From positions 97,338 through 161,337 of the forward strand of contig CAXTPS010000006.1 of the NCBI GenBank assembly GCA_964246305.1: a stretch of DNA of 64,000 nt, in the 5' to 3' direction. This document shows positions 19,713 through 60,300 of the stretch, one piece after another. The translations under genes and the position numbers were made by a program. The notes under the pieces are model-generated. The model was not told where the DNA came from. It saw only the letters and a program-made list of their open reading frames with translations, and ran no database searches. Each line of letters starts with the position of its first letter. Within the stretch, counting starts at the first letter, position 1. This stretch comes from an uncultured Pyrinomonadaceae bacterium. Its GTDB lineage: Bacteria; Acidobacteriota; Blastocatellia; Pyrinomonadales; Pyrinomonadaceae.

Positions 19713-22565
19713 CTACCAGCGACCGAACAGCACGAATGGAGACCAGAAAAATGGATGCGGCTGCTCCTTCATCAACCTGAGCTGAGCATGGCGCAAGGCC
19801 GTTGCAGCAGACGCTCCGGCGCACAATCTCTGATAAAAATCGGTCATCAGGTTCGCGGTCGCCTCATCATCCACCGTCCAGAGGCTCATCAGTAACGACG
19901 GCGCGCCCGCGGAGAAGAAGCCGCGAGCCAAGCCTATCAACTCGTTGCCGGGAGCGACCGCGCTCATGCCCGTCTCGCACGCGCTCAGCGCGACCAGCTC
20001 GCACCTTTGCAGCTCAAGCGCGTAAGCATCCCGCACGGTCAGCCAGTCATTCGACAGCCGCAGAGATGAGAAGAGCGGATTGTCCGGTCGGAACTGACCA
20101 TGACAGGCAAGGTGTAACACGTCTGCCTGCGCTGCGTTCTCTTTGACGGCAGCGAGCGTGCCGCGCTCGTCAAGCAACACAGTGGCTTCCGGAAAAAGCG
20201 GCGCGAGCGCGAGGACTTCATCTCTCACGCGTGGCGTCTGCTCATCCGGCACTCCGACCAGCACTGCGCGCTGCAGGGAACGCGGCTCGCGCGCGAGGCA
20301 ATGAGTGAGGACGACCGCGCTCGGAGCGTAACAGACTTCGCGCCGCTCTATCACGTAATCAATCCCGTCATGCAACGCATGAAAAGGAACGTAATGCAGC
20401 GCGCGATGTGGAACGATCACGAGGCGACGTTCCGCGCCGATAAATTCTTCGAGGGGTGCGAGCAGCACATCATAGAGCGCCTGCAAATGATGAAGCGCAC
20501 GCCTGGTCAGATGCGGCAGGTGCTTGCGCATGCGTTCCGCGCCGAAGCGCAGCGTGTCTATTTGAAAACGGAGCTGTTCGAGCTGTGCTTCGACCTCGCG
20601 CTCGCTGCCCAAGTGACGTTTGACGGACACACCTTCGCCCGTCAGGACAAATGCCAGCAGCTCTCCGTCAAGGCTCGTGTATTCGACGAGCGCGGCGTCT
20701 TCTCCGAGCGCGCTTTGAAGCTGCTCTATGTTCAGCGTCTCGACCGAAGCGGAGAGCGCGGGTTGTTCGCCGCGATGCTGCAACTGGCGCGTGATCTCAA
20801 GCGTGCGATGCTCGCGCTCTCTGACTTCCCTTTGCAGCGAGGCCATCTCGTCCGCGCTCTCCGAAGCATCGCTTTTCTGCGCGGGACGGTTGATCTGGCT
20901 ATAAAACCAGTTGAGCTGCTCGCGCAGGTCTTGAAGCTCTGCGATGAGTTCGGCCTCGAAAGCGTCGCGCGGCTGCGGCAGGACTTTGAGCGCGCCGCCG
21001 AGTATATCCACCAGAGCGCGTGAGCGAGCGCGCTCGACAAAGCTCAAAGCCTCAGCCGCGCGATCCGTCTCAACATCCGATAGATAGAGCCGCACCATCT
21101 CGTCGTATGGCACGAGCTTGTCAGAAAAGAAGGACGCGCGAAACTCTTCCGCAGGCAAGGGCGCACGCATGGTCTCGATTAACTCTATCGCGCGCTTGAA
21201 CGCCGCCTCAGCTCTCACGGCATCGCCAACGCCCGCCGCCAGCAGGCCGAGCGAAGTGTGGCAACGCTGCTCGACCTGCGGCTGCGCCTGCTCCTCCGCG
21301 TCATGCAGCGTCGCTTCCAGGATAGCGCGTGCTTCAGCTGTCGAGCCGAGAGCGCGCAATGCGTCGCCGCGCAGCCAGCGCGCCATCAGCAAATTTCTCC
21401 ACACGCCCGCGGCAGAGAGCGGAGCTTCGGCCTCTTCGGCAGCCAGCATCGTCGCCGGATAATTCCCCGAAGCGTGATGAAGCTGAGCCATCGTGAGCGC
21501 GACCATCGCTTCGCCGAGCGCATTGCCTTCGACTGCGTAAAGCCTGCGCGCATCCGTGAGCAGTTGTTGCGCCTGTGTCATCTGCCCCAGCAGGATTGCC
21601 GCGCGCCCGTGATGCGCCAGAGCCAGAGCCTGCTCCGCGCGCATCGACAGTTCTGCAAACATCGGCGTCACGCGCTCGTAAAGCTCTGTCGCTTCTGGAG
21701 CGAGATTCAATTCCAGATAAGCGTCCGCTATCTCCAGCGCGGAGACGGCGGATTCATGCGGCATCTGCATCTCCGCATACTTGCGCCGCGCGCGTTCAAG
21801 ATAATCGAGCGCGCGGTCATAACGCCCCTGAAAGAGCGCAAGGTTGCCCATGCTCGATTCTATTCCCGCCTGCGTCGCCACCATCCCGGCGGCCTCTGCG
21901 CGTTCGAGAGCCTGATCGTAAAGCTGCTCGGCTGAGCGGAAATTATGTTTTAAGGATTGAATATAGGCCAGACAATTATCGAGCGTAGCAAGCTGTTTGT
22001 CGTCGCTCAGAGCCTCAAAGCGCACACGCGCCGCAAGAAAGAAATGCTCCGCTTCATCATAGCGGTCGCGACGCCAGTAAATGTTGCCGATGTTGTGCTC
22101 GATCTTTCCGGCGGCGAGAATATCGTCGTGCGCTTTTAAGACTTCCAGAGCGCGCAGGCCGCACGCGATGGCCTCTTCGTAACGTCCGACGATGGCGAGC
22201 GCGATGAGCTTGGAGACCTGCGTTGAGGCAGCAGTGCCTTCGAGATTTAAAGAGACGAAACGCGCCTCTGCATCATCCAGATGCTCTATGGCGCGTTCCA
22301 TCTGTCCTGCGACCAGAGAGGCCAGCCCCGCGCTCCATGCGGCGCACGCAGCGACCTCCCCTGCTTGTGTGTATCGTGTGAAGGCTTCGAGCGCAGCAGC
22401 CGCCGCAGTCGTGCGCGCGGGGTCTGACGCCCATGAGTCGAGGCAGATGTCTTTGAGCGTGTAAGCCAGCGCGGCGTCGGCCAACAGCGCGTGACTCCGC
22501 AAGAGAGCTTCGCGCTCCGCATCGTCCGACGCGATGAGCAGCGCTGCCAACTCCGCACGTTCCAT
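19713..22565 (-). CDS. TPR-repeat + CHAT-domain protein (caspase-like protease superfamily), cytoplasmic
   Basis: About 500 aa of TPR-like repeats are followed by a coiled region and then a CHAT domain. Both dyad contexts are present: VLHLACHGQF (His) and LVALSACETG (Cys). Confidence 0.9.
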   Translation of the reverse strand: MERAELAALLIASDDAEREALLRSHALLADAALAYTLKDICLDSWASDPARTTAAAAALEAFTRYTQAGEVAACAAWSAGLASLVAGQMERAIEHLDDAEARFVSLNLEGTAASTQVSKLIALAIVGRYEEAIACGLRALEVLKAHDDILAAGKIEHNIGNIYWRRDRYDEAEHFFLAARVRFEALSDDKQLATLDNCLAYIQSLKHNFRSAEQLYDQALERAEAAGMVATQAGIESSMGNLALFQGRYDRALDYLERARRKYAEMQMPHESAVSALEIADAYLELNLAPEATELYERVTPMFAELSMRAEQALALAHHGRAAILLGQMTQAQQLLTDARRLYAVEGNALGEAMVALTMAQLHHASGNYPATMLAAEEAEAPLSAAGVWRNLLMARWLRGDALRALGSTAEARAILEATLHDAEEQAQPQVEQRCHTSLGLLAAGVGDAVRAEAAFKRAIELIETMRAPLPAEEFRASFFSDKLVPYDEMVRLYLSDVETDRAAEALSFVERARSRALVDILGGALKVLPQPRDAFEAELIAELQDLREQLNWFYSQINRPAQKSDASESADEMASLQREVREREHRTLEITRQLQHRGEQPALSASVETLNIEQLQSALGEDAALVEYTSLDGELLAFVLTGEGVSVKRHLGSEREVEAQLEQLRFQIDTLRFGAERMRKHLPHLTRRALHHLQALYDVLLAPLEEFIGAERRLVIVPHRALHYVPFHALHDGIDYVIERREVCYAPSAVVLTHCLAREPRSLQRAVLVGVPDEQTPRVRDEVLALAPLFPEATVLLDERGTLAAVKENAAQADVLHLACHGQFRPDNPLFSSLRLSNDWLTVRDAYALELQRCELVALSACETGMSAVAPGNELIGLARGFFSAGAPSLLMSLWTVDDEATANLMTDFYQRLCAGASAATALRHAQLRLMKEQPHPFFWSPFVLFGRW

Positions 22566-22568
22566 TCG

Positions 22569-23162
22569 CTATGCCTTTAATTCAAATTCGGGGACTTCGA
22601 TCTCTGTGCCGGAGAAATTAATAACGAGAGAATATTTGCCGGAAGGCACACGCGGCAGCGTGAACTCGCAAAGGTCGTTCATCAACGCGCTTTCCTCAAC
22701 GCTCTCGCTACGCAGCTCGACCTGCCCGCTCTCGCATTCGCCTAGCACCTGACCCGAAACCACCCATGCGCCATCGTCCGGCGCAACGCGCAGGTCAAGA
22801 TCATGATCGCCGACGCTGAAGAGAAGCTGGCGCGCGACCGACTGGCCTGAGCGGACGCCGAAGGCCGGAGACAACTGGCGGCTATCAAAGCTCAGGACTG
22901 CCATCACTCGCTGCATGACGGAGGGCTTTTGTTCAGCCGCACGCGGGCGAAATAGATTGAGCGCGTGCGAGATAACATCACGCGGGGCGTCTTCCGCCAG
23001 ATCAGTCCGCATGAGATTGACGAGTTGTTCGAGGCGAGCCACTTGCGCGGCGCAATCCGAACAATCCGCCAGATGTGAGCGCGTCGCTTCGCTCTCTTCG
23101 TGCGTCTGGCGATTCTCGGCCAGATCGGCCAGTTTTTCGAATGGAATGTGTTGAGTCTTCAT
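22569..23162 (-). CDS. putative anti-sigma factor (zf-HC2-like N-terminus, beta-sandwich C-terminus, no TM helix)
   Basis: It has an HLADCSDCAAQVARLEQL motif. It lies between the ECF sigma gene and the CHAT gene, 3 nt from the CHAT start. The start is set at the ATG at 23162. Confidence 0.65.
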   Translation of the reverse strand: MKTQHIPFEKLADLAENRQTHEESEATRSHLADCSDCAAQVARLEQLVNLMRTDLAEDAPRDVISHALNLFRPRAAEQKPSVMQRVMAVLSFDSRQLSPAFGVRSGQSVARQLLFSVGDHDLDLRVAPDDGAWVVSGQVLGECESGQVELRSESVEESALMNDLCEFTLPRVPSGKYSLVINFSGTEIEVPEFELKA

Positions 23163-23260
23163 CTGCCTGCCAACTTTGTTAATTCGGGGGTTATCAAACT
23201 TTTCAAAACCGTCACTCAACACAACAGTGCGTAATTCGTGCCGGGAAATACATCACGGAA

Positions 23261-23827
23261 TCAATTTTCAATCAGACGCAGCAATTTTTGCAAACAACGG
23301 GCGCGGGTCGGGCCGATGCTGCCTTCGGTCGTCCCCAGTGCCTGTGCTATCTCGCCATAACTAAGAGAGTTAGACTGATAAAAGAGCATCTCGATTAATT
23401 TGCGGCAACGCTCATCCATCGAGGCGACCGCGCGGCGCACACCCTCCTGCTCTTCAAGGCGCAGCATCACTTCGTCGGGTAAAGGCGCGTCGTCAGGGAC
23501 TCGCGCGGCCTCGCTCTCATCCCCGTCGTCCACATTATTGAATGAGCCTGCATGACTCTTCTCGCGCGAGATGAATCGCCAGGTCATACGCCGCGCCGTC
23601 GTCACTATCCACGCCTGAATCCGCTCAGGCTGTTCTATCCCGTCAAGCTTTCTGAGCAGCGTGGCAAACACATCCTGAAAGACTTCCGCAGACTGATCTT
23701 CATCAAGCCCCGCGCGGCGTGGAATCGTATAAATCAGCCGCTGGTAACGATTGACCAGAGCTTCCCACGCGGCCTCATCACCCTTGCGACACGCCAGCAC
23801 CAGATTTTCATCGCTGATTGAACTCAT
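23261..23827 (-). CDS. ECF-type RNA polymerase sigma-70 family factor
   Basis: Region 2 is AWEALVNRYQRLIYTIPRR...DVFQDVFATLLR. Region 4 is LSYGEIAQALGTTEGSIGPTRARCLQKL. The start is set at MSSISDENL (23827). Confidence 0.85.
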   Translation of the reverse strand: MSSISDENLVLACRKGDEAAWEALVNRYQRLIYTIPRRAGLDEDQSAEVFQDVFATLLRKLDGIEQPERIQAWIVTTARRMTWRFISREKSHAGSFNNVDDGDESEAARVPDDAPLPDEVMLRLEEQEGVRRAVASMDERCRKLIEMLFYQSNSLSYGEIAQALGTTEGSIGPTRARCLQKLLRLIEN

Positions 23828-23968
23828 CCCGTTTGACGAATAATCATTTTCCTGTGATGAAAGAATAGGATGCACGTTCTTGTTTTGTCTAGCGAATGAA
23901 GACCACAAAGCCTGAATTACTCCTCAATAAAAAAATTCTTAAGCGGCAACGTATTTTTCGCACTGCCC

Positions 23969-24382
23969 TCAGCACTGTTTTACCGGAATGACGGTTAAAA
24001 TTTCAGGCATGACCGGACGATCTTTTAATGCGCTTTCGATCAGAGCCAGAATCTCAGACGGCAGAAAAGGCTTTTTCAAGACTTCGATTGCGCCGCACGC
24101 TTTTAGCTCGCAGATCATCTCAGGCGTGCCGTGCGCCGTGATGACGATGACGCGATTGTCCGCGTCCTTCGCGCGCAAAGCGTTGAGGACTTCGAGGCCG
24201 GTGATGTCCGGCAAGCGCAGGTCAGTCACCGTAATATCAAAGCGTAGACTGTCGGCCTGCTCGATTCCGTCGCGCCCGCAACGCGCCAAGACGGTCTCGT
24301 AGCCCTGATCGCGCAGAATCAACGTGAGAGCTTCGGCGATGCTCGGCTCGTCGTCGATAATTAAAATTCTTGCTTTTCCCAT
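23969..24382 (-). CDS. stand-alone response-regulator receiver (CheY-like)
   Basis: ARILIIDDEPSI...FDITVTDLRLPDITGLEVL...VIVITAHG...LKKPF. Confidence 0.85.
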   Translation of the reverse strand: MGKARILIIDDEPSIAEALTLILRDQGYETVLARCGRDGIEQADSLRFDITVTDLRLPDITGLEVLNALRAKDADNRVIVITAHGTPEMICELKACGAIEVLKKPFLPSEILALIESALKDRPVMPEILTVIPVKQC

Positions 24383-25121: not shown

Positions 25122-25763
25122 TTAGAATGTAACCATTAGCCGCTCAACACTGTCACGCGCCCTACCAGCCAAACCGGACTTGTCAAATATCTGTTTCGCG
25201 CGCTGCTTGAGGGCAACATCTCCAGTGAGCAGGTATGATCTTCGCAAGTAATCTATCGCCAGTAATGGGTTTGCCTCGAGGAGATCGGCCAAAGTCTGGT
25301 AATATCTTGCTCGCTCCTGAAGCGATTTAAGGAAATCTCCTAGGTTCCGAGTTAAACGAGTATCCATTTCGATATACTCAGTACGAACAAGATCGGATGG
25401 TAGCTTCACGTTACCGATCTTAATGACTACAGTCTCCCTTCCATAGGCGTGCATCCAACCCAGTTCGTAAAAAATGTTTGCCATTGTCTCTGAGCTAATC
25501 CCTTCGTGGACAATGGCGATTCCGACTGGACAGGCAACTGCCAGCCCCCAAATTTTAAGTAAGAAGTCCTTACCGGTAGTTACGCTCGCTGCATCAATAA
25601 TCTTGAATTTAGCTCGTCTCAGGATTTCGGTCACACGCTTTTTCGTGTCACGTACCTCAGCAGATATAGGCTTACCCATTGCTGCCATCAAGAAGCATGT
25701 CCGTGCACGCCATTTCACCGGAGCGCTATGGACATCACCATCTGTGGGTCTATAGAAAATCAT
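25122..25763 (-). CDS. TIR-like / nucleoside-2-deoxyribosyltransferase-like (flavodoxin-like fold) domain protein with C-terminal helical domain
   Basis: The motif order is CFLMAAMGKP (beta1), then FKIIDAASV...PVGIAIVHEGISSETMANIFYELGWMHAYGRETVVI, then LPSDLVRTEYIEM. This matches the cFviMpFg...npNVfYElGyA.algK.vi...lPfDl..r.i.Y pattern of TIR-like/NDT-like modules as I remember it. The ATG overlaps the stop of the upstream gene (ATGA). The locus is AT-rich. Confidence 0.55.
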   Translation of the reverse strand: MIFYRPTDGDVHSAPVKWRARTCFLMAAMGKPISAEVRDTKKRVTEILRRAKFKIIDAASVTTGKDFLLKIWGLAVACPVGIAIVHEGISSETMANIFYELGWMHAYGRETVVIKIGNVKLPSDLVRTEYIEMDTRLTRNLGDFLKSLQERARYYQTLADLLEANPLLAIDYLRRSYLLTGDVALKQRAKQIFDKSGLAGRARDSVERLMVTF

Positions 25764-26113
25764 TTTCGCCTAGAGCACGATGCTGCGATTGCCACACCTT
25801 TGTAAGCGCCGTCGCTCTTTTTATGTGAGATGATCATTCCCGCGGATGTATCGATTTTCACGAAATGTCCGCTCCGTGGATTTCTTAGTTGAGAAAGTGC
25901 GCTTGCCGCAAATGTCTTCGTCTTAGAACTCGACCGTCCGCCATGCAATGTAGCAGATGCTTTCTTCGCGCCCTTCGCAGTGGACGTTGAGCGACTGGCT
26001 TTCGAGGAAGAATGGGCAGTTTTGGCCGCCCCCTTCGACGTGCGAGATGTTGAGGCCTTTCTCGGCGCGCTTGAGGCCTTTGATATAACTTTCTTACTAT
26101 TTTTTTTAGCCAT
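25760..26113 (-). CDS. Lys/Ser/Ala-rich basic protein (histone-H1-like low-complexity N-terminus) with a short C-terminal SGHFV-type module
   Basis: MAKKNSKKVISKASSAPRKASTSRTSKGAAKTAHSSSKASRSTSTAKGAKKA... is followed by RNPRSGHFVKIDTSAGMIISHKKSDGAYKGV. A GGAGG sequence lies about 8 nt upstream of the ATG. It is coupled to the downstream TIR-like gene. Confidence 0.5.
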   Translation of the reverse strand: MAKKNSKKVISKASSAPRKASTSRTSKGAAKTAHSSSKASRSTSTAKGAKKASATLHGGRSSSKTKTFAASALSQLRNPRSGHFVKIDTSAGMIISHKKSDGAYKGVAIAASCSRRK

Positions 26114-26255: not shown

Positions 26256-27668
26256 CTATTCCGAAACCGCTTCGTCTTGCGTGATGACATCGTCCACGAT
26301 GGCGTCGTCCACGTTTCTCAGTCCAAACTTTTTCAGCTTGCGATAGAGCGTCGGGCGATGCAGGTCGAGTATCTCCGCGGTCTTCTTGACATTGCCGCCA
26401 GTGCGGTCGAGCGTCTGCGCGATGGCTTCGCGCTCGATCTCTTCGAGGGTCATAAAGGGCGGGATGACGCAGAGGGTCGAAGAGGTGCGGCTGCCCTGTA
26501 GCTCTTCAGGGAAATTCTCAGGCATGATCTGCGGCGTCTGGCAAAAGAGCACTGCGCGCTCAAGCACGCTCTCCAACTCGCGTATGTTGCCCGGCCAATT
26601 GTAGCGCGAGAGGACTGCGAAAGCCTCCTGCGAGATGCCGCGTATCTGCTTGTTATATTTTTCGCTGTAACGTATCAGAAACCGCTCGGCAAGGAGAGCG
26701 AGGTCTTCATGTCGCTCACGAAGCGGCGGCACTTTTAGCTTGATCGTGCTGATGCGAAAGTAAAGGTCTTGTCTGAAAGTTCCCTCCTGCGAAGCCTTCA
26801 CTGTGTCGCGGTTCGTCGCGGAGACGAGACGAAAATCAACATTGATTTCATGCTCATCTCCCAGACGACGCAGCTTGCGCTCCTGCAAGACGCGCAGGAG
26901 TTTCGTCTGCAAGTGCAGGGGCATCTCCGCTATCTCATCAAGCAGCAGAGTCCCGCCCGCCGTCGCTTCGATCAAGCCGCGCTTGTCGCGGTCTGCCCCC
27001 GTGAACGCGCCCTTCTTGTAGCCGAAGAGTTCGGATTCGATCAGCTCTTGCGGAATCGCCGCGCAGTTGATGCGTATGAAGGGACGATCCGCGCGATTGC
27101 TCTCCATGTGAAAAGCTGTGGCGATAAGCTCCTTGCCAGTCCCCGACTCGCCTTCGATCAAAACGGAAGCGTCGGATTTGGCAGTGGCGCGAATCGTCTC
27201 ATAAATCTCAAGCATCTTCCGGCTGCGACCGATCATCCCGAAAGCCTCGCTCTCGTCGGCCAGCGTGCGCTTGAGCTGTTTGTTCTCGTTGCGAATCTTG
27301 CCGAACTCCGAAGCGCGCTCGGCGAGCATGATGACCTGATCGGGCGTGAAAGGTTTTTCGATGTAGTAGTACGCGCCGCGCTTGATGGCCTCGATGGTCA
27401 CGTCGAGCGAGCCGTGCGCCGTCATCAGTATCACTTCCGTTTCGGGATTGTCCGCCTTGATGTGCGAGATCAAATCAATCCCGCTCGTGTCCGGCAGACG
27501 CAAATCCGTGAACACCAGATCGAACGGCGGCCCGTCAAGCAACCGCTTCGCCTCCGCCCCGTCAGCCGCCGTCTTGACCTCGCACGCATGCTCGCTCAAG
27601 ATCATTTCAAGAGCATCCCTCACGCTGCTCTCGTCGTCAATAACGAGGATTCTGCAACCAGTTATCAT
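26256..27668 (-). CDS. sigma-54-dependent response regulator (NtrC family: REC-AAA+-Fis HTH)
   Basis: The REC domain has ILVIDDE...DLVFTDLRLPD. The AAA+ domain has GESGTGKELIA, the GAFTGA loop (KGAFTGAD) and ESELFGY. The C-terminal HTH is NVKKTAEILDLHRPTLYRKLKKF. Confidence 0.9.
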   Translation of the reverse strand: MITGCRILVIDDESSVRDALEMILSEHACEVKTAADGAEAKRLLDGPPFDLVFTDLRLPDTSGIDLISHIKADNPETEVILMTAHGSLDVTIEAIKRGAYYYIEKPFTPDQVIMLAERASEFGKIRNENKQLKRTLADESEAFGMIGRSRKMLEIYETIRATAKSDASVLIEGESGTGKELIATAFHMESNRADRPFIRINCAAIPQELIESELFGYKKGAFTGADRDKRGLIEATAGGTLLLDEIAEMPLHLQTKLLRVLQERKLRRLGDEHEINVDFRLVSATNRDTVKASQEGTFRQDLYFRISTIKLKVPPLRERHEDLALLAERFLIRYSEKYNKQIRGISQEAFAVLSRYNWPGNIRELESVLERAVLFCQTPQIMPENFPEELQGSRTSSTLCVIPPFMTLEEIEREAIAQTLDRTGGNVKKTAEILDLHRPTLYRKLKKFGLRNVDDAIVDDVITQDEAVSE

Positions 27669-27687: not shown

Positions 27688-29211
27688 TCACTTACCGGCG
27701 GGCAATTCTATCTCAATGCGTGTGCCGTGTCCTTCGCGGCTCTCGACACGGATTGCGCCCTGATGTTGTTCGATGATCTTTTTCGCGTAGGGCATGCCGA
27801 GCCCTAAGCCTTGCGCCTTCGTGGTGTAGAACGGCTCGAAGACGTTTCTGACCTGCTCGTCGCTCATCCCTTTGCCGGTGTCCGTGATCGTGATCAGCAG
27901 GGCATCGTCTCTCACAACGGTCTTGACAGTCAACGCGCCGCCCCCTTGCATGGCCTGAATCGCGTTGAGCATGAGATTCATGAGCGCGGCGTGAATCGAA
28001 GCCTCGTCAAGCATGCCGACGGGCGCGGGCGACGTGAGTTCGAGTTTGACAGAGATGCTATTGGCCGTGCTCTGCGGCTCAAGCAGTTGCGCCATGTCGC
28101 TCACGACGGTGTTGAGGTCTACGCGTGTGAGGTTCATGTTGATGGGGCGCGCGAAGCTCAGAATCTGTTCGGTCGTTTCGGTCAGGCGTCCGATGCCGTC
28201 CGCGATCTTGTTGACGATGTCCATCTCGTTGTCTGCCAATTTTCCGGCGACTTTGTTTTTGAGATGGAGCGAGTAGAGGCGCAGGCCGGCGAGAGGATTT
28301 TTGACTTCGTGCGCGACCTGTGCGGCGGCGCGACCGAGCGCGGCTATCTTCTCGTTATGCGTGAGCCGTTCCTGCATCTGCCGCAACTCTTCTTCGGCAG
28401 CTTTGCGCGCCGTGACATCGTTGAGGAGCGCGAGTCCGGCCTTGTGCCCGTCGAAGTCGAGCGTGTGCGAGCTGACCTCAACGTCAATCAGCGTGCCGTC
28501 TTTTTTTCGATGCCGCCACGGGCCGGACTGCGCCTCGAACTCTTCGCGGGTCTGCGCCAGATCGTCGAGCAGCGCGGGCACGTCTTCGAGCGGGCGTATG
28601 TCCTTGAGGGTCATCGCTAAAAATTCCGCTCTCGAATAACCGTAATGGCGCATCGCCGCTTCGTTGACGGCGAGAAAACGGAGCGTGTCGTAATCGAAGA
28701 CCCACATCGGCTGCGGATTACTCTCGAAGAGCAGGCGATAACGCTGTTCGGATTCGCGCAGCTCAGCCGTGCGTCCGGCGATTGTAGTTTCAAGCTGCTC
28801 CGTATGTTTTTTAAGCTGCGCTTCGAGATCGAGCTTCTCATCGCTGAGCCGCTTGTGCTCGACCGCGCGCGAAACTATTTTGATAAGCGTGTCTTTACGA
28901 ACGGGCTTGGAGATAAAATCGTAAGCTCCGGCGCGAATGATGTCCGGCATCTGCGAGATGTTCGGCTCGCCCGTAATCATGATGACGGGCAGGCGCGGCG
29001 CGCGGCTACGCAGCTCTTTGAGCAGCTCTATGCCGCTCTTGCGCGGAAGGATAATATCAATGACGGCGACATCGAGTTCGTGCTGCTGGAAGATTTCGAG
29101 CGCGCTCTCGAAATCCGAGGCGGTCAGCGCGTCATAGCCTTCGCGCTTTAAAAATTCCGCCATCGTCCAGCGAATGTTCGGCTCGTCATCGACCAACAAG
29201 ACTGTCGGCAT
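27688..29211 (-). CDS. hybrid sensor kinase: N-terminal REC + PAS + HisKA + HATPase_c
   Basis: The REC domain has VLLVDDEP...DVAVIDIILPRKSG. The PAS domain has RYRLLFESNPQPMWVFD. The H-box is AAQVAHEVKNPLAGL. The G-boxes are DTGKGM and GLGLGM. Confidence 0.9.
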   Translation of the reverse strand: MPTVLLVDDEPNIRWTMAEFLKREGYDALTASDFESALEIFQQHELDVAVIDIILPRKSGIELLKELRSRAPRLPVIMITGEPNISQMPDIIRAGAYDFISKPVRKDTLIKIVSRAVEHKRLSDEKLDLEAQLKKHTEQLETTIAGRTAELRESEQRYRLLFESNPQPMWVFDYDTLRFLAVNEAAMRHYGYSRAEFLAMTLKDIRPLEDVPALLDDLAQTREEFEAQSGPWRHRKKDGTLIDVEVSSHTLDFDGHKAGLALLNDVTARKAAEEELRQMQERLTHNEKIAALGRAAAQVAHEVKNPLAGLRLYSLHLKNKVAGKLADNEMDIVNKIADGIGRLTETTEQILSFARPINMNLTRVDLNTVVSDMAQLLEPQSTANSISVKLELTSPAPVGMLDEASIHAALMNLMLNAIQAMQGGGALTVKTVVRDDALLITITDTGKGMSDEQVRNVFEPFYTTKAQGLGLGMPYAKKIIEQHQGAIRVESREGHGTRIEIELPAGK

Positions 29212-30739
29212 ACTCTCTCTCCCGTGTTGGAACTGCCGGCAGCTCGACTATGAAACGAGTGAAACTGCCTTCCTCGCTCTCGACCGAAATCGTCCCGCCG
29301 TAATCGCGTATGATGCCGAAGCTCAGGCTCAGGCCGAGACCCGTCCCGCCATGATCGCGGCGCGTGGTAAAGAACGGATCGAAAATCTTATCGAGGTCTT
29401 CTTTCCTGATACCCGTGCCGCTGTCGTAGAACTCGATGCGGACGACCTGCTCCGCTCCAGCGCGTGCGACGGCGCGTGCTGTGATGCGAAACAGTTTCTC
29501 TTCTCCCGCCTTCGCCTTGAGCGCGTGCTGCGCGTTGCTGATCATGTTGACGACGACCTGACGCAGGCGCGAGCCGTCGGCTTTGACCGGAGGCAGATTT
29601 TCGGCCACGTCTATCTCAACTTTGATGCCGCCCTTTTCCAGTTGATGTCCGAAGAGCGAGGTCGAGTTATTGATAATCTCCGCGATATTGACGCGCGACA
29701 ATTCGTGCGCGTCGCGTCGCGCGAACGTCAACAGGTTGCGAACGATTTTCGTAATCCGCTCGCCCTCATCTATGATTCCGTCAATCAGACGCGATTCAAA
29801 ATCCGTGCGCTGCTTTTCTTCATCCTTGAGAAGCTGCGCGAAGTTGATGATGCCGTTGAGCGGATTGTTAATCTCGTGTGCGACGCCTGCGGAAAGCTCG
29901 CCGATTGAGGCCAGCTTGGAGGATTGAAAGAGCTGCCGCTGCATCTCCGCCTTCTCGGCTTCGAGCCGCTTGCGCTCTGAAAGGTCACGTATGATTAAGA
30001 TGATCAGACGCTCTTTGCCCGTCGCCAGCGTGCTGAATGAAGCGGAGACGGGTACGGTCGCGCCGACCGGAGTTTGAATCTCTAACTCCTGCTCGCTGGA
30101 TTCGGACTCGGAGCTGACGACGAAGGCCGCGAGGCGCGCATAAAGCTCCGCCAGCATGCCCCTGATCGGACATTGATAAAGCTTTCTAAGATCAAGCTCC
30201 GGCAGTTGCCCGGCATTTGTTTGAACGATTGTTTCGTCGATCCACTTCGACAAGCTTTCGGAGATCGTGCCGTCCGGGTTGCGCTGTGCCAGCTCGCGCA
30301 CGTTTCTGCCGGTCAACTCTTGCGGCCCGTAGCCCAGAATCTCGCCGAACTTGCGATTGACCTGCACGATTTTGAAATCGGGAACCGAGACGACGCCGAT
30401 GCCGTCGTTGGCATGCTCAAAGAGCAGGCGGTAACGCTCTTCGCTCTCGCTCAACTTGCGCTGCTGGCGGCGCACGACTCCGAGCAGGAGCGTGACGACG
30501 ATGCTGTCCACCGTGACGGAGATGAAGAAGTGTTCGGTGCGCTGTTGAATCAGGCGACGCCGCTCGGTATTCTCGACGCCCGGATAACGCGTATCCACCC
30601 AAGCATAGAATGGATTGAGCAGAACTTTCTCCCACGTCAGGATGACCGCGATGGTGAGCGTAGTGGTGAGGAGGATGAAGAAGAGAATAATCTTTAGATT
30701 GTTCTTCTCGTTAACGATGAAGCCCTTAGGCATGCTCAT
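29186..30739 (-). CDS. membrane sensor histidine kinase (2 TM + PAS + HisKA + HATPase_c)
   Basis: The PAS domain has RYRLLFEHANDGIGVV. The H-box is AGVAHEINNPLNGI. The G-boxes are DSGTGI and GTGLGLS. The start is ambiguous (30766, 30739 or 30733). The stop overlaps the next gene by 26 nt. Confidence 0.85.
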   Translation of the reverse strand: MSMPKGFIVNEKNNLKIILFFILLTTTLTIAVILTWEKVLLNPFYAWVDTRYPGVENTERRRLIQQRTEHFFISVTVDSIVVTLLLGVVRRQQRKLSESEERYRLLFEHANDGIGVVSVPDFKIVQVNRKFGEILGYGPQELTGRNVRELAQRNPDGTISESLSKWIDETIVQTNAGQLPELDLRKLYQCPIRGMLAELYARLAAFVVSSESESSEQELEIQTPVGATVPVSASFSTLATGKERLIILIIRDLSERKRLEAEKAEMQRQLFQSSKLASIGELSAGVAHEINNPLNGIINFAQLLKDEEKQRTDFESRLIDGIIDEGERITKIVRNLLTFARRDAHELSRVNIAEIINNSTSLFGHQLEKGGIKVEIDVAENLPPVKADGSRLRQVVVNMISNAQHALKAKAGEEKLFRITARAVARAGAEQVVRIEFYDSGTGIRKEDLDKIFDPFFTTRRDHGGTGLGLSLSFGIIRDYGGTISVESEEGSFTRFIVELPAVPTREREYADSLVGR

Positions 30740-30885
30740 CCCCCTCCAGACCCGATAGCCCGTCATCTTCGTAAGCTTAGGCTTGATCTAATTTTTAATT
30801 GATTATCCATCGAATTGGCAAGGCCAGAAAAAGTTTCGGTGAAATCCGTGTGAAGAACTGAGACCCTTGGAAGGATAAAATCAAC

Positions 30886-30914
30886 TTGGCTGCGTTCTAT
30901 AAGTGAGATAATAT
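30886..30914 (+). promoter_or_regulatory. candidate sigma-70-type promoter for the WD40-caspase gene
   Basis: TTGGCT-N17-TAATAT lies about 120 nt upstream of the ATG at 31035 in an AT-rich divergent spacer. Confidence 0.3.
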
Positions 30915-31034
30915 TTGATGACTGGAATATCAGTTAACCCGGCTCATCTTATTTTGAGCGGGCGTGTCGAATAGAAAGAACCGTTCACTAACTCACGTGA
31001 ATTTGATCTCGATTAAACCACCAAAAAGGTCGAT

Positions 31035-33962
31035 ATGAATTGGAGCATTCGTTTAACCGCGAGCAAGGTCTTAGCGGGGCTGGTCTTGTTGTTGGTTGTC
31101 CAGCCAGGCGTCAGCGCGCAAGAGCCATTGCGCGAACCCGTGCTGCGTATCGAGACGGGAAAGCATACTGACACTATCTCAAGGATTAGCGTAGACGCCG
31201 CCAATCGTTTTCTCGTGACTGCCTCTCATGATAAGACGGCGCGGGTCTGGGAGCTTCCCACAGGGCGACTGTTGCGCGTCCTACGTGTGCCGATTGGTGC
31301 GGGACCAGAGGGCGAACTGTATGCCGCCGCCATCTCGCCCGACGGGATGACCATCGCCACCGGAGGATGGACGGGAAACGAATGGGACGGGAGCTTCTAT
31401 ATTTATCTCTTCGACCGAGAGAGCGGGCATCTCGTCCGACGCGTGGGCGGATTTTCTAACGTGGTTAAAGACCTGGCTTACTCTCTTGATGGGCGCTATC
31501 TAGCAGTTATGCTCGGCAGCGATCAAGGCGTCCGTGTTTATTCGACTGCGAATTACGCTCTGGCGGGCGAGGACGGGGTTTATGGCGATTCCAGCTACAA
31601 CGCCAATTTCGACCACGCAGGGCGACTGGTGACGACTGCCAGTGATGGTTATGTACGTCTGTACGCTCCGCCCGGCAGTGGGTCTTTGCGCCTGCTTAGC
31701 AAATGGAAAGCGGCGGACGGTCAACGGCCATTTGAAGCAACCTTTGCTCCCGATGGCTCGCGCGTGGCTGTCGGGTTTGTGCATTCAACTAAAGTGATCG
31801 TGCTTTCGGGAAACGATCTGGTTCCGCTATATGCGCCCGACCATTCCGGCTTCGAAGACTGCGATTTGGGTAATGTCACATGGTCGATTGACGGTCGCAC
31901 GCTGTACGCTGGCGGAACGTGCGCTGACGCCGATAATCACAAATACATACGTGCGTGGGCTGACGAGGGGCGCGGCGGTTATCGTGATCTTATTAGCGGA
32001 GCCAGAAATACCATCATGGACATGTTCACCTTGAGCGATGGCAGCATCGCTTACGGCACTGGAGGCTCCACCATTGGCGTCATAGACGAGAAAGGCACGC
32101 AGAAGCTTTATATCAAGGGAGACCTTGCCGACTACAGAGACAATAAGCTGGGTCTGCTCCTCTCGCCCGATGGTGCGGCCTTCGGATTCAGCTATGAACA
32201 GTACGGCAAATCTCCCGCAGAGTTTTCCCTCGCCGAGCGCAGATTAGATAGCGCACCCGTTTCCAAAGATTTGCGTCCTCCTATAACAGAAAACAGTAAT
32301 TTGCGTATCACTGACTGGAATGGGTCTTACACGCCGAAATTGAACGGTCATCCTTTGTCCTTGTCGTTTGCTCTGAGGGAGTGGTCGCGCAGCGTCGCTA
32401 TCGCGCCGGACGCCGGCTCATTCCTGCTCGGGACTGAATGGGGACTACATCTTTTCGACCGTCAGGGCAAAGAACTCTGGAAAGTCAATATGCCCAGCAT
32501 CGCATGGGCTGTAAATATCTCGGGCAACGGGAAGCTGGCGGTCGCGGCGTTCAGTGACGGCACGATTCGTTGGTACGACATCAGGAACGGCAAAGAGCTG
32601 CTGGCCTTCTTTCCGCATCAAGACCGCCAGAGATGGGTCATGTGGACGCCCTCAGGCTATTATGATGCCTCGCCCGGCGCGGAAGACCTCATCGGCTGGC
32701 ACGTCAACCACGGGCGCGTGGCAGCCGCAGACTTCTTCCCTGCCGGACAATTCCGCGAAACCTTCTACAGACCCGATGTCATCGCTAAGGTTTTAGAGAC
32801 CGGCGATGAAGCCAGAGCCTTGCAAGCGGCTAACGAAGAGGCCGGACGTAAGGAGCCGCAAGCAAAAATCGCTTTGCGGTTGCCACCCGTCATTGAAATC
32901 GTCACACCCTCCGATAACGCGACGGTCTCCAGTTCCGAAGTAACTTTGCGGTATCGCGTGCGCTCGCCGTCAGGCGAGCCGCTGACAGGCGTCCGCGCTT
33001 TGATTGACGGGCGTCCGGCAGTTCAGCCCAGGCCGCTTCCGGCTCAGCCGGATGCAGGGGCTGACGATATACATGAGATTAAAATTCGAATGCCCGCACG
33101 TGACAGCGAGGTTTCCCTCATCGCCGAAAACCGCTTCGCGGCGAGCACGCCCGCGACCATCAGCCTGAAATGGCGTGAGGCGGCGGCGAACGCCGCCCGC
33201 GCGGAAAGCTCAGGAGGCAAACCCAGTTTGTACATTCTGGCTATCGGGGTAAGCAATTACGCGGATCCGAAATACAATTTGAAGTTCGCAGCTAAAGATG
33301 CGGGCGATTTCGCCAATGCGATGACGGGTCAGAAACACCTGCTCTACCGCGATGTGATTGTCAAGACGCTGACCAATGAGCAGGCGACCAAAGGCGAAAT
33401 TCTGAAAGGGATAAAATGGATTAGCAAGGAGACGACGAGCAACGACGTGGCGATGATTTACTTCGGCGGGCACGGCGTCAACGACCGGAGCATTTACTAC
33501 TTTTGCCCGTATGACATCAATCCGAAAAACTTGACCCTCACCGGCATCGCCTTCTCCGATATGAGAAGCAACGTCTCGTCCATCGCCGGTAGAATTATCT
33601 TTTTCGTTGACACTGGACACCCCGGCAATTCGGTCGGAGAGGGCGGGCGGCGCGGCAGGCTCGACCTGAATCTCTTCATCAACGAGATGTCGAGCGCGGA
33701 GAACGGGGTCGTTGTCTTCTCCGCTTCGTCAGGCAGCGAGTCTTCTTACGAGCGCGCGGAATGGAATAATGGGGCGTTCACCAAAGCTCTGGTCGAAGGC
33801 ATCAACGGAGCCGTCTACCTTTCCGGCAAGGGGAGCGCAACCTATTCGATGCTGAATTCTTACATCTCAAGCCGGGTCAAAGAACTGACTGAAGGCCGGC
33901 AACGCCCGACGATGATTTCTCCTCAGACGGTACCGGATTCTCCCATCGCGGTGAAGAGATAG
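31035..33962 (+). CDS. secreted WD40/beta-propeller repeat protein with C-terminal caspase-like (peptidase C14) domain lacking the catalytic Cys
   Basis: The signal peptide is MNWSIRLTASKVLAGLVLLLVVQPGVSAQE. WD40 repeats are present (ASHDKTARVWELPTGRLL, SDGTIRWYDIRNGKEL). The C14 domain has LYILAIGVSNYADPKYNLKFAAKDA and IYFGGHGV (His present). At the Cys position, 48 aa after the His, it reads FFVDTGHPG, where DxCxxG is expected. Confidence 0.9.
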   Translation: MNWSIRLTASKVLAGLVLLLVVQPGVSAQEPLREPVLRIETGKHTDTISRISVDAANRFLVTASHDKTARVWELPTGRLLRVLRVPIGAGPEGELYAAAISPDGMTIATGGWTGNEWDGSFYIYLFDRESGHLVRRVGGFSNVVKDLAYSLDGRYLAVMLGSDQGVRVYSTANYALAGEDGVYGDSSYNANFDHAGRLVTTASDGYVRLYAPPGSGSLRLLSKWKAADGQRPFEATFAPDGSRVAVGFVHSTKVIVLSGNDLVPLYAPDHSGFEDCDLGNVTWSIDGRTLYAGGTCADADNHKYIRAWADEGRGGYRDLISGARNTIMDMFTLSDGSIAYGTGGSTIGVIDEKGTQKLYIKGDLADYRDNKLGLLLSPDGAAFGFSYEQYGKSPAEFSLAERRLDSAPVSKDLRPPITENSNLRITDWNGSYTPKLNGHPLSLSFALREWSRSVAIAPDAGSFLLGTEWGLHLFDRQGKELWKVNMPSIAWAVNISGNGKLAVAAFSDGTIRWYDIRNGKELLAFFPHQDRQRWVMWTPSGYYDASPGAEDLIGWHVNHGRVAAADFFPAGQFRETFYRPDVIAKVLETGDEARALQAANEEAGRKEPQAKIALRLPPVIEIVTPSDNATVSSSEVTLRYRVRSPSGEPLTGVRALIDGRPAVQPRPLPAQPDAGADDIHEIKIRMPARDSEVSLIAENRFAASTPATISLKWREAAANAARAESSGGKPSLYILAIGVSNYADPKYNLKFAAKDAGDFANAMTGQKHLLYRDVIVKTLTNEQATKGEILKGIKWISKETTSNDVAMIYFGGHGVNDRSIYYFCPYDINPKNLTLTGIAFSDMRSNVSSIAGRIIFFVDTGHPGNSVGEGGRRGRLDLNLFINEMSSAENGVVVFSASSGSESSYERAEWNNGAFTKALVEGINGAVYLSGKGSATYSMLNSYISSRVKELTEGRQRPTMISPQTVPDSPIAVKR

Positions 33963-34047: not shown

Positions 34048-34275
34048 TCAGCGATTGTTGGGCGCGACGGAGACGAAGCCCGCGCGGTGCTCGTTGTCGC
34101 GCACTTCCCAGACTACCGCGATTTTATCAATCGCCACATAGCACATCTGCTGCTCGTCATCCCTCAGATGCAGCACGCTGGCCTCTACTTTTATCACTTC
34201 GCCGCGCAGGCTCGACGCGCCGCCGCAGAAAATGTCTATCCGCCGCCCGATCATCCGCGAAAGAAATTCTTGCAT
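34048..34275 (-). CDS. small hypothetical protein (75 aa), Sm-like/DUF2642-like beta-barrel pattern
   Basis: IGRRIDIFCGGASSLRGEVIKVEASVLHLRDDEQQMCYVAIDKIAVVWEV. The family assignment is tentative. Confidence 0.45.
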   Translation of the reverse strand: MQEFLSRMIGRRIDIFCGGASSLRGEVIKVEASVLHLRDDEQQMCYVAIDKIAVVWEVRDNEHRAGFVSVAPNNR

Positions 34276-34295
34276 GATTCACTCCTTTAAAAGCC

Positions 34296-34379
34296 GTGAT
34301 AGGTAATGGGTGATAAGAGAAGACAGGATTTTTCCTATCACCCATCACTCATCACCTGCTTTTCCTATCACCTATCACC
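34296..34379. repeat. intergenic hairpin built from GGTGATA / TATCACC words (copy 1)
   Basis: gtgataggtaatgggtgataag...cctatcacccatcactcatcacc...cctatcacctatcacc. It overlaps the last codons of the YkgJ-like gene. Confidence 0.8.
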
Positions 34380-34850
34380 GTTCTTCTCTTTCCATTCCCA
34401 GATTTTCTCGCTGCCGTTGCTGTTCGAGACCACCTTCTTTTTGACTTCGCGGAAAGTGATCTGGACGAGCGGCAACACGTTCGGGTCATCCTGTTGCCTG
34501 CGCTCGAATTGAAGCAGGTCGTAATAAGAGCAGCGCGAGCGGTCTGGATATTCGCGGCAGACGGCAGGGCGCGCGTGATAAATACCGCAACCGCGCGTCT
34601 CCTCGTTGAGAAACTGGCACGTCTCTTCAAAGATGACATCCTTCTTGCGACGCAGGACGCGCTCGCCGCTGTGCATCTTGGTGTAACGCTTGGTCGCCGT
34701 CTCGACGCTCACGCCGAAATGCTTTGCGAGACGGTTGATGTCTCTTTTGTTCACAGCCACGCGCTCGTAGATCGAGCAGCAGTACGCAGGACATTTGGAA
34801 CAGTCGAAATAGATACGCGGCTGCTCATCAGTTATTTTTTTGCTCCCCAT
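34368..34850 (-). CDS. YkgJ-family cysteine-cluster (CxxCxxCC) protein
   Basis: YFDCSKCPAYCCSIY...TCQFLNEETRGCGIYHARPAVCREYP. Confidence 0.8.
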   Translation of the reverse strand: MGSKKITDEQPRIYFDCSKCPAYCCSIYERVAVNKRDINRLAKHFGVSVETATKRYTKMHSGERVLRRKKDVIFEETCQFLNEETRGCGIYHARPAVCREYPDRSRCSYYDLLQFERRQQDDPNVLPLVQITFREVKKKVVSNSNGSEKIWEWKEKNGDR

Positions 34851-57347: not shown

Positions 57348-60300
57348 ATGAGTAAGCTTCGCAACCATAACTGGCTCGTGCGAACTTCGTTTCTGCTCGT
57401 CATGCTGATGCTGGCCGCGCCGCACGCTTCGGCGCAGGTCACGACAGGCAGCTTGCAGGGCGTCGTGCTCGACCAGAACAAGGCGGCGGTCGCGGGAGCG
57501 GCTGTCAAAATCATAAACAAAGCCACCGGCATCACGCGTGAGACGACGACTAATGACGAAGGTTATTATCGCGTCACGAATCTTGTGCCCGGCGCTCAGT
57601 ACAGCGTTGAAGTGACGGCGCAGGGCTTCGCTCCGGCAGCCATCAACAACATCGCTGTGCGGCTCGCCACGGAGAACAGCGCGGACGTGCAGCTCACTAT
57701 CGGAGAAGTGGGCGGAACCGTCATCGTGACGGACTCGCAGCCGCTGATCGAAGGCACGCAGAGCCAGTTGGCGCAGAGCTATACCCCGCGACAACTGACG
57801 CAGCTTCCCTTTAACGGCGGCTCGATTGACAATCTGGCTCTCCTGACGCCGGGCGTCGTCACGCCGGGCGATACGGACTTTGCCAACGGCACAGGCATCA
57901 GCGCGAACGGCAATCGTGGACGCTCGAACAACTTCCAGATTGACGGTCAGGATAATAACGACAACTCTGTGACGGGGCCGAGCCTGACGCTGACGAACAC
58001 GGAAGCCATCGGTGAGTTTCAAGTCATCACCAACAGCTTCTCCGCAGAGTTCGGCAGAAATTCCGGTGCGCAGATCAACACCATCACCAAGCCCGGAACC
58101 AACGAGTTTCACGGCACTGTCTTTGAGTATCACAACAACCAAGCGCTCGACGCGCTCACCAACTTGCAGAAAGTGAACGCCGGCGGATTTCAATTTCTCT
58201 CTGCCAACGGCTTTTCGCAGTTCACAGGGCTGGCGAATCGCAACGGGCGCGACCCGTTCAAGGTCAACAAGTTCGGCGGCGCGCTCGGCGGCCCGATTAA
58301 GAAGAACAAGGCTTTCTTCTTCTTTACCTATCAGGGGACTTACACGCGAGGCGAAGCCGTTGCCAACGGACTCAACACAGCCCAGTTCACCTTTGACGCT
58401 CCGAGCGCGCTGCTCGCGGCGCAGTTGTTCCCGAACGCCGCGACGGCTCAACTGACTTCGCCAATGGTCGGCGGCGGCCCGGCTTTCGTTCAGGGACAGG
58501 GCACATTCCTGCTCGCGCCGCCGGTCACGGACGTGAACGGCGACGGCATTCCAGACGCCTTCCTGTTCGGGCCGGGCAACCCTGCCGGAAATACTCCGAC
58601 GGCGAACCTTCTGCAACCGAGCCTGTTCGTCAGAGACGCGAGCGGAACCTTGCGTCCCCTCTACACGGGAGAGCCTGTGCGTCTGGTGAAGGCCGATTCG
58701 ACGGCCAATGAGATCATCACGCGTGAGGATTTCAACCTGACGGACAAGGACACTCTGAGCACGCGTTATATTTTCAACAAGACCAATTTCCCGATAGGAA
58801 CGGGGCGTGCGCTGGCGGGCGCGCTCTTCGACGTGCCTTCGCGGAATCACAATCTCGGCGTCTCTTACACGCGCACGTTGTCTTCCAATCTGGTCAACGA
58901 GGCGCGCTTCAACTACTCGAACCTGTACGTCGCTTTCGGCGACCCGAACGGCACGTTGCCGGGACCGCAGATCGGATTCTCAGGAGCGCGAGACATACTC
59001 GGCAACATCGGCAGTCTGGCTTTCGGCGGGCAGAACGTGTTCCCGCAAGACCGCAAAGTGGTGGTCTTTCAAGAGCAGGACACGGTCTCCGCGACCATCG
59101 GCAACCACGCGCTGAAGTTTGGCGCGGATATTCGCCAGCAACGCACGCAGAATTTCTTCCTGCCGAACTTCCTCGGAGCTTATACGTTTCGCGGGACGAG
59201 CAGCAGCGGCACGATTCCCGCCAACACTTTCTACGACGAGACGGGCGCGCCGCGCACAGGGCAACCGGCAACTGCTTTCGAGAACCTGCTGCTCAATCGC
59301 CCGCGCGATATCAATTTCGCGCTCGGCAGTCCGCGCCGCGACATCAATCAGGACGATTACTTCTTCTTCGTTCAGGACGACTGGCGCGTGCTCCCGACCC
59401 TGACGCTCAACCTCGGACTGCGTTATGAGCTTTCGACGCAGCCCTTCAATGCTTTGATTGAGCAGTCGAATGCGCGCGAGGCAGATCCGTCACGCGCTAT
59501 CTTCAATCAGGCGTTCCCGCTTTCGACGCGTACCCTGAACACGCTGCCGCTCGACAAGAACAACTTCGGCCCGCGTGTCGGTTTCGCATGGTCGCCGAAC
59601 CTGCAATTTCTGGGCGACCGCTTCACGAACGGGCGCACGGTGATTCGCGGCGGCTTCGGCGTCGCTTATGACCCATCGTTCTTTAACATCGTCAACAATA
59701 CTGTCACGGCAGCTCCATTTGTCGGCACGGGCACGATTCGCCAGAACAATCCGGGCACTCCCGGACAGATGCTCGGCATTCCGTTCCTGCCGACGACGAC
59801 CGCTCAACTCAACACCACGCCGGGAACCAACGGCGGCGACCCGCGCCTCTTCAACCAGACGCGCGTGGCGGCTGACTTCCGCAATCCGTACACGATGTCT
59901 TACAACTTCGGCTTCCAGCAGGAGATTTGGAAGAACACTGTGTTCGAGGCGCGTTATGTCGGCTCGCGCATCGTCGGCCAGTTCCAGAGCGTCAATGCCA
60001 ATCCAGACCTGCGCTTTCTGGCACGCGCCGGGTGCGATCCGGGCGTCTTCCCGGGCGCAGACCCGGCCACGTGCGGCGGTCGCTTCACGGGAGGCATCAT
60101 CGCTCCCGGCGCGACCGTAGGCAATGACTTCAACAGCCGTCCGGGCACGAACGGTAACGGACGACTTGATCCGAACTTTGGCCCGACTCGCCTTCGTCTG
60201 AACGGAGCGAGCGCGACTTACAATGGTTTGCAGACGCGCTTTGACACGCGCTTCACGGATTCGCTGAGCTTGAATGCGAACTACACGTGGAGCAAGACCC

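Follow-up and report, generated by a model that had tools for sequence, protein, structure and literature searches.

The subject of this analysis is a complete gene on the forward strand of a 64,000-nucleotide (nt) stretch of contig CAXTPS010000006.1 from an uncultured Pyrinomonadaceae bacterium; this whole stretch is referred to as the window. The gene encodes a protein of 975 amino acids (aa) with a predicted Sec-type signal peptide, an extended beta-propeller region, an Ig-like domain and a C-terminal caspase-fold domain of peptidase family C14, in which the catalytic His is kept and the column of the nucleophilic Cys is occupied by Gly (Table 1). The N-terminus displays the pattern of a signal peptide, with Arg6 and Lys11 in the n-region, a hydrophobic core reading VLAGLVLLLVV and a predicted cleavage site between VSA and QEP. 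The full-length AlphaFold model, for which 102 homologues served as input, has a predicted local distance difference test (pLDDT) score of 89.1 and a predicted template modelling score (pTM) of 0.86; it features a low-pLDDT helix at aa 6-21 that is consistent with the signal peptide. Pfam matches to WD40 or beta-propeller families cover aa 40-300 and 460-540, and the model has approximately eleven blades of four strands each in the stretch from aa 36 to 570; Foldseek matches of this region include the 7-bladed propellers 7bie (TMt 0.90) and 5yzv (TMt 0.87), and the tandem propellers 2ymu and 1nr0. A helical linker leads from the propeller region to the Ig-like sandwich, which overlaps a Big_7 (Ig-like) match at aa 618-660 that falls under the Pfam cut-off (E 0.011). 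The first-pass annotation, made from the letters alone, had described a 975-aa open reading frame (ORF) with a signal peptide and WD40 repeats and had guessed at an Ig-like linker; the ORF, the Pfam matches and the conserved N-terminal layout agree with the former, and the seven strands modelled at aa 619-713 support the latter.

The C-terminal domain is matched by Peptidase_C14 (PF00656) over aa 735-962 (E 5.6e-13; 49.6 bits vs a cut-off of 21.4) and forms an alpha/beta domain at aa 732-973 of the model. A Foldseek search with the full-length model was swamped by propellers and uninformative on the caspase part, hence the caspase domain was modelled separately (pLDDT 87.4). Its best match is GSU0716 (3bij; E 3e-14, template modelling score ~0.68); further matches are the MALT1 paracaspase, Yca1, a Candida metacaspase, AtMC9 (including C147G mutants) and TbMCA2, the metacaspase MCA2 of Trypanosoma brucei. 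The Foldseek probability of 1.00 for GSU0716, MALT1, Yca1, AtMC9, TbMCA2 and procaspase-7 places the domain in the caspase/hemoglobinase alpha-beta fold of family C14. The caspase part is a single contiguous fold of ~250 aa, closest to GSU0716 and aligned to positions 5-225 of the 233 in the Pfam C14 profile.

Table 1. Features of the pseudo-caspase gene and of its surroundings (window positions unless a relative's locus is named).
Feature	Position	Strand	Basis or remark
Complete ORF, ATG start, 975 aa; predicted exported beta-propeller / Ig-like / C14 pseudo-caspase	31035..33962	+	Uninterrupted frame, 2928 nt
Sec-type signal peptide (predicted), aa 1-28, cleavage between VSA and QEP	31035..31118	+	n/h/c layout, conservation in homologues
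Beta-propeller region, aa ~36-570: canonical 7-bladed WD40 propeller, then more blades	31140..32744	+	Pfam, DSSP strand pattern, Foldseek
Ig-like beta-sandwich, aa ~619-713	32889..33173	+	Seven strands in model; weak Big_7 match
Peptidase_C14 caspase-fold domain, aa ~730-975, catalytically disabled	33222..33959	+	Pfam, domain model, Foldseek
Asp755 (AAKDA), S1-pocket acidic residue kept	33297..33299	+	Invariant in family; aligned to Asp95 of TbMCA2
CAC, His813 in IYFGGHGV, catalytic His kept	33471..33473	+	His in 120/120 homologues
Asp859 (VDTG), S1-pocket acidic residue kept	33609..33611	+	Invariant, 120/120; aligned to Asp211 of TbMCA2
GGA, Gly861, catalytic Cys column	33615..33617	+	Cys in 119/119 homologues; TGT/TGC in relatives
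AT-rich divergent intergenic spacer, common to histidine-kinase operon	30767..31034	.	GC 0.396
PAS histidine kinase	29186-30766	-	Phosphorelay operon, divergent from caspase gene
Receiver-PAS histidine kinase	27688-29211	-	Phosphorelay operon
Sigma-54-dependent response regulator	26256-27668	-	Phosphorelay operon
75-aa ORF, DUF6897 (E 1.2e-14), strong Shine-Dalgarno AAAGGAG	34048-34275	-	Directly downstream of and convergent with caspase gene
DUF4384 partners	L004:7003-7944, L005:6630-7589, L006:3143-4216, L007:3500-4513, L009:137-1222, L012:7956-8972		Relatives' loci

The protein belongs to a large family. A word-indexed protein search returned 1867 matches at E<=1e-5, the best 120 of which are collinear, ~950-1000 aa long and 50-64% identical, and an exhaustive search with the Ig-like and caspase parts gave 1410 cluster representatives at E<=1e-30; in the protein collection searched the window protein itself is a singleton cluster. 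The best 120 full-length collinear members of the 1867, the window protein included, were aligned with MAFFT; the 119 homologues align over 96-100% of their length and share the same domain order. Their names go no further than 'caspase family protein' or 'WD40 repeat protein', and they come mostly from Pyrinomonadaceae metagenome-assembled genomes, with some from Syntrophobacterales and other Proteobacteria.

Where the family motif at the nucleophile site is F-[VI]-D-[TS]-C-H-[SA]-G-N, positions 33609-33626 of the window read GAC ACT GGA CAC CCC GGC, i.e. D-T-G-H-P-G. In the MAFFT alignment the nucleophile column is Cys in 119 of 120 sequences, the sole Gly being that of the window protein. 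A caspase profile hidden Markov model (HMM) built without the query (hmmalign; 279 domains from 270 proteins) again placed the query's Gly on the Cys column, and a profile of 32 diverse domains compared with the PDB aligned vDtCHSGn to the DSCHSG of GSU0716 (3bij, E 3.9e-6). The same PDB profile alignment puts the Gly861 column on Cys213 of TbMCA2 (FDC[A/G]HSG), a position that is Ala in entries 4afr and 4afv and Gly in 4afp and 4af8; His813 aligns with the His of SGHG in Yca1, MCA2 and GSU0716. The Gly at the Cys column and the His context reported in the first-pass annotation are thus reproduced by three independent alignments, and the comparison of Cys with Gly among orthologues comes out as Cys in all 119.

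The enzymes of family C14 require the Cys thiolate for acyl-enzyme formation. By its sequence the window protein is a pseudo-protease, a C14 domain of the metacaspase/orthocaspase type (DxCHSG) in which the His is kept and the nucleophile Cys is replaced by Gly, and it is almost certainly not a cysteine protease; it is taken to be inactive because its catalytic Cys is Gly, as in the inactive TbMCA2 C213G/A. The protein from which the first metacaspase structure was obtained is described as an "inactive (C213G/A) mutant" of MCA2 (PMC4357240). Both acidic residues of the S1 pocket, whose counterparts Asp95 and Asp211 have this role in TbMCA2 (PMC4357240), are kept. For the active members of the family, the His-Cys dyad (GHG ... 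DTCHSG) together with the acidic S1 pocket leads one to expect a periplasmic or extracellular protease that cuts behind Arg or Lys.

Export appears to characterise the family as a whole. In 101 of the 120 homologues the N-terminus has a basic n-region and a hydrophobic core, then A-x-A directly before a Gln and a conserved EPSREPILRIETGMHT motif; the others are mostly truncated gene calls. A signal peptide throughout the family means that export is no oddity of the window gene, contrary to the earlier suggestion that an exported location would be unusual for this architecture. Exported or membrane-anchored caspase homologues of bacteria were already predicted in 2012, and WD40 is their most frequent accessory domain (PMC3501461). 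The best NCBIfam match of the protein is the EACC1-associated caspase family NF047832 (E 6e-18, aa 735-949), at 65 bits vs a cut-off of 140; membership in the EACC1 type was rejected, as the score is far under the cut-off and the EACC1-type partner is absent. A role as an anti-phage defence effector was also rejected, with PADLOC giving only a generic 'caspase' model (40.9 bits) over the N-terminal third of the profile and the partner genes being absent.

Loss of the dyad is recurrent and, judged from the aligned sequences, independent within this family; it is rare and not unique in kind. Of 279 aligned family caspase domains 268 are His/Cys. The Cys is changed to Ala in P0127 and P0217 and to Ser in P0246, which has the architecture of the window protein, the His is changed to Arg in P0267, and a Gln-Cys or His-Ile pair is seen in the internal first caspase domain of P0053, P0077, P0080, P0122 and P0125. 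These last five proteins (936-1441 aa) have two caspase domains each, the internal one with a broken dyad and the C-terminal one intact; they amount to a built-in pair of pseudo-caspase and caspase that is reminiscent of heterodimeric regulation. The His-Gly dyad is confined to the window protein among the 279 domains, and the family searches found no second Gly-bearing sequence that would form a conserved pseudo-variant clade with it. On this sequence comparison the change from Cys to Gly took place in the lineage of the window protein alone, within a widespread and exported family that is otherwise active.

Among bacterial orthocaspases in general 8.6% are without the dyad, most often as the YS variant and commonly also as HA or QC, and there are documented cases of pseudo-orthocaspases in which the S1 Asp residues are conserved (PMC6426788). 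With this frequency, the catalytically dead orthocaspase is already an established category. As regards its p20-type domain with a substituted dyad (His-Gly) and its two kept S1 Asp residues, the window protein answers to the published definition (PMC6426788), in which prokaryotic orthocaspases are set apart from metacaspases by their lack of a metacaspase-type p10 domain; it is a further example of a pseudo-orthocaspase, not a new kind of protein. It resembles the bacterial pseudo-orthocaspases described by Klemencic et al. in 2019 (PMC6426788) and Asplund-Samuelsson et al. in 2012 (PMC3501461) in that the dyad of a C14 p20-type domain is substituted while the S1 acids and the fold are kept, and in being a bacterial multi-domain protein with protein-interaction modules; among them, variants with one residue substituted and the His kept (HA) are reported to be common. 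However, the YS, YN, YA, FS and QC clades are old conserved lineages, mainly of Cyanobacteria and Rhizobiales, whereas the HG variant of the window is a private event of a single lineage. The domain order also differs from that of the described pseudo-orthocaspases, the window protein having the signal peptide, propeller and Ig-like domain N-terminal and the caspase domain C-terminal.

The engineered TbMCA2 mutants C213G and C213A (4af8, 4afp, 4afr, 4afv) offer a close parallel at the active site: a DxCHSG motif with the same column changed to Gly, and the His and the equivalents of S1 residues Asp95 and Asp211 in place. The TbMCA2 mutant has a normal fold and is described as inactive, and the C147G mutant of AtMC9 has likewise been crystallised, as seen among the Foldseek matches. 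MCA2, however, is a Ca2+-dependent cytosolic type I metacaspase of a eukaryote and has a regulatory segment at its N-terminus; its similarity to the window family is remote (profile E ~1e-3), and the mutation was engineered in MCA2 but is natural in the window protein. GSU0716 of Geobacter sulfurreducens, the best match both by structure and by profile, is a bacterial protein that has the caspase fold in a single chain and the motifs GHG and DSCHSG; it differs in its intact Cys and in being a stand-alone, functionally uncharacterised protein of ~285 aa, whose crystallised chain has no propeller, Ig-like domain or signal peptide. The nearest comparison is with the protein's own exported WD40-Ig-caspase family, collinear over the full length with the same signal peptide and domain order; all 119 aligned members keep the Cys, however, and the neighbours that are usual for them are not found at the window gene.

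Those neighbours were compared at the loci of 8 relatives. A secreted DUF4384 protein of ~313-361 aa is encoded at 7 of the 8 (six compared pairwise are 34-52% identical), a Ser/Thr kinase at 6, at least one shorter secreted C14 protein whose dyad is intact at 5, and tandem WD40-caspase paralogues at 2; a fusion of C14 and DUF4384 is encoded at L012:18414-20255. The set of WD40-caspase, DUF4384 protein, kinase and C14 protein has the look of an extracytoplasmic caspase gene cluster that is as yet undescribed, and none of the papers found to mention DUF4384 reports it. Within the 64 kb of the window no partner gene or paralogue was detected, as tblastn with the query, 5 DUF4384 proteins, 4 C14 proteins and 3 kinases matched only the query's own caspase domain; the window gene is therefore an orphan relative to the usual module of DUF4384 protein, kinase and extra C14 within this distance.

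What does lie beside the gene is a phosphorelay operon, transcribed divergently across an AT-rich spacer (GC 0.396 vs 0.559 for the whole window), both of which had been pointed out in the first-pass annotation. The spacer and the operon are real, but the operon is a neighbour in none of the 8 relatives' loci, which leaves the suggested adjacency without a counterpart in the family. A functional link between the caspase gene and the operon of PAS histidine kinase, receiver-PAS histidine kinase and sigma-54 activator was rejected on this ground and on the lack of a -24/-12 promoter in the spacer; the sigma-54 -24/-12 consensus has no match there, and its 27 matches in the whole window compare with 32 expected. 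The genes downstream, namely the convergent DUF6897 gene, a CxxCxxCC-domain gene, a deoxyhypusine synthase gene and that of a CNNM/CBS/CorC protein, have no evident link to the caspase gene.

The favoured reading, at a probability of about 55%, is that the gene encodes a retained non-catalytic exported protein, a lineage-specific dead member of its family, rather than a decaying gene. Modest support for retention comes from the intact ORF, an acceleration of the caspase domain of only ~2-fold, the kept S1 Asp residues and two ordered changes in the nucleophile codon. The window protein keeps 155 of the 163 columns that are near-invariant (>=97% conserved) in the family, and in the caspase domain 61 of 67, including His813, D755 and D859. 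On the terminal branch the propellers have accumulated 0.30 and the caspase domain 0.28 substitutions per site, a caspase/propeller ratio of 0.92; the family median is ~0.45, so the window protein lies about 2-fold higher, at rank 9 of 92, and several members with an intact Cys exceed it. The caspase domain is relaxed and is not drifting freely. As to the codon, relatives use TGT or TGC where the window gene has GGA; since TGA is a stop codon, the order of changes must have been TGY to GGY to GGA, so that the Gly was already in place when at least one more change occurred in this codon.

An early stage of decay is a serious alternative, if the less likely one: a WD40-caspase copy would have been split from its cluster, lost the Cys and been released from selection with its frame still open. 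In its favour are the restriction of the Gly to a singleton lineage, the absence of the DUF4384 protein, the Ser/Thr kinase and the extra C14 gene from the 64 kb, and a caspase acceleration within the top 10% of the family. It is opposed by an undisrupted ORF of 2928 nt on a branch of 0.3 substitutions per site, which would be hard to keep without selection, by a caspase/propeller ratio of 0.92 and not one well above 1, by the retention of 61 of the 67 near-invariant columns of the caspase domain and of the two S1 aspartates, by the confident fold in the models, and by the two ordered codon changes, which indicate that the loss is not brand new. The first-pass annotation had itself considered a strain-specific decay mutation in an otherwise degraded gene; the Gly is indeed private, but the gene is not otherwise degraded.

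Several observations weigh against retention and are to be set beside these. The window protein departs from the family at eight near-invariant columns, where the median member departs at one; the caspase domain accounts for six of them (K853R, C861G, L885M, T899S, A927V and F969S), an enrichment that is marginal (Fisher p=0.065). A gene in early decay would be expected to show such a pattern too. Private substitutions cluster around the dyad in the alignment of 120 (F809Y, A811G, G819S, K853R and S863P) and are counted both for the favoured reading of a dead family member and as a sign of relaxation. The nearest relative is 64% identical and the branch is long (0.3 substitutions per site). 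Nothing closer than about 61-64% identity was found among species-representative genomes, JGI metagenome contigs and a 5.8-billion-protein set; scans of genome contigs and metagenome contigs gave relatives at 35-37% identity only, and a short-query protein search gave 5 fragments, at most 61% identical and all with Cys. The missing partners fit a stranded, functionless copy as well as a re-purposed one. No promoter was identified for the gene, sigma-70-like matches across the region being at chance level; the window sequence comes from a single assembly, and the putative signal peptide is judged from its pattern and conservation.

If the protein is retained, Sec export would deliver a pseudo-caspase to the periplasm of a diderm cell, or beyond. 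With no nucleophilic Cys there would be no thioacyl intermediate and cleavage would be impossible; the protein would then act by binding, with the propeller as a platform and possibly also with the caspase domain holding a substrate uncut. The gene is also uncoupled from its usual cluster of secreted DUF4384 protein, Ser/Thr kinase and further C14 proteases. The role as a scaffold or decoy proposed in the first-pass annotation is plausible, but the present data do not tell it apart from an intact frame whose function is already gone. A more specific proposal, and a speculative one that is rather improbable as it stands, is that of a selected exported substrate trap or decoy, in which the acidic S1 pocket and the propeller would bind the Arg/Lys-containing periplasmic or extracellular targets cleaved by active relatives and so regulate an extracytoplasmic caspase module encoded elsewhere in the genome; if true, bacteria would have in this protein an equivalent of cFLIP or TbMCA4 that works outside the cytoplasm.

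Continued proteolysis through another nucleophile or mechanism, e.g. with Cys824, Ser819 or Thr860 acting together with His813, is considered very improbable. The His, the glycines of the oxyanion region and the S1 aspartates are all kept, Ser819 was gained by the window protein alone (the only Ser among the 120 residues of this column) and Cys824 lies 11 residues past the His. However, column 824 is variable in the 120 sequences (Leu in 62, Cys in 51), and the 51 also have the canonical Cys; Cys824 of YYFCPYD, which the first-pass annotation had named as the residue that might prove to be the genuine nucleophile, is therefore neither a displaced catalytic residue nor a compensating gain, and it is excluded by the HMM alignment of the Cys column, where the query has no genuine Cys. 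Thr or Ser at 860 is family-wide and not compensatory, the Ser at 863 beside the site is lost to Pro, and the engineered Cys to Gly/Ala mutants of MCA2 are described as inactive. Apart from Ser819, no Cys, Ser or Thr unique in the family was gained beside the site in the alignment of 120.

The least credible explanation is an error of sequencing or assembly at the Gly codon, with Cys encoded by the true gene: the sequence is a singleton cluster from one assembly and one contig, but GGA differs from TGT/TGC at two positions of one codon, as noted in the first pass when a single sequencing error was called unlikely, and both this and the adjacent TCC to CCC change (S863P) argue against an error, as do the other private changes nearby (K853R, A811G, F809Y) in an undisturbed frame.

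Taken alone, the finding is of small impact: it lengthens by one the list of dead caspase homologues, which already account for several percent of the orthocaspases of bacteria. The gene is, however, a natural copy of the Cys to Gly inactivation used by experimenters, in a well-conserved protein, and would be a convenient control for the non-catalytic parts. It also points to a large and apparently unstudied family of exported propeller-Ig-caspase proteins with a recurrent neighbourhood, found in Acidobacteriota as well as in other bacteria of soil and sediment; this family and its neighbourhood of DUF4384, kinase and C14 genes are a more interesting lead than the dead copy itself.

Other features of the window were recorded alongside. 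An operon on the reverse strand (19713-23908) encodes a sigma factor of the ECF type at 23261-23908, a putative anti-sigma factor that has a Cys-rich motif at 22569-23222, and a TPR-CHAT protein of 950 aa at 19713-22565. This last protein matches CHAT with E 8e-70 and has the LACHG and SACETG motifs; it is a second protein of the caspase fold (clan CD), 8.5 kb from the pseudo-caspase. Among the relatives' loci, a TPR-CHAT gene lies beside the WD40-caspase gene in L005 and an ECF sigma factor is encoded nearby in L012. Between a receiver-domain gene (23969-24382) and the sigma-54 activator gene, the reverse strand at 25122-26113 carries a 213-aa ORF and a 117-aa ORF whose basic, low-complexity product has a very high content of Ser, Lys and Ala. 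Rfam and tRNA scans of the window gave no matches. Between the CxxCxxCC gene and the reverse-strand DUF6897 ORF, positions 34289-34385 contain imperfect inverted and direct repeats of GTGATAGG and CCTATCAC units, with 26-nt arms that are 81% complementary and a 19-nt direct repeat at 30 nt spacing; this cluster may fold into a hairpin, act as a terminator or serve as an array of operators. The forward strand at 57348-61175 encodes a 1275-aa outer-membrane protein with CarboxypepD_reg and OMP_b-brl_4 domains (E 1e-138), similar to TonB-dependent receptors. This architecture is typical of Acidobacteriota, and the protein agrees with the Pyrinomonadaceae names of the best caspase homologues.

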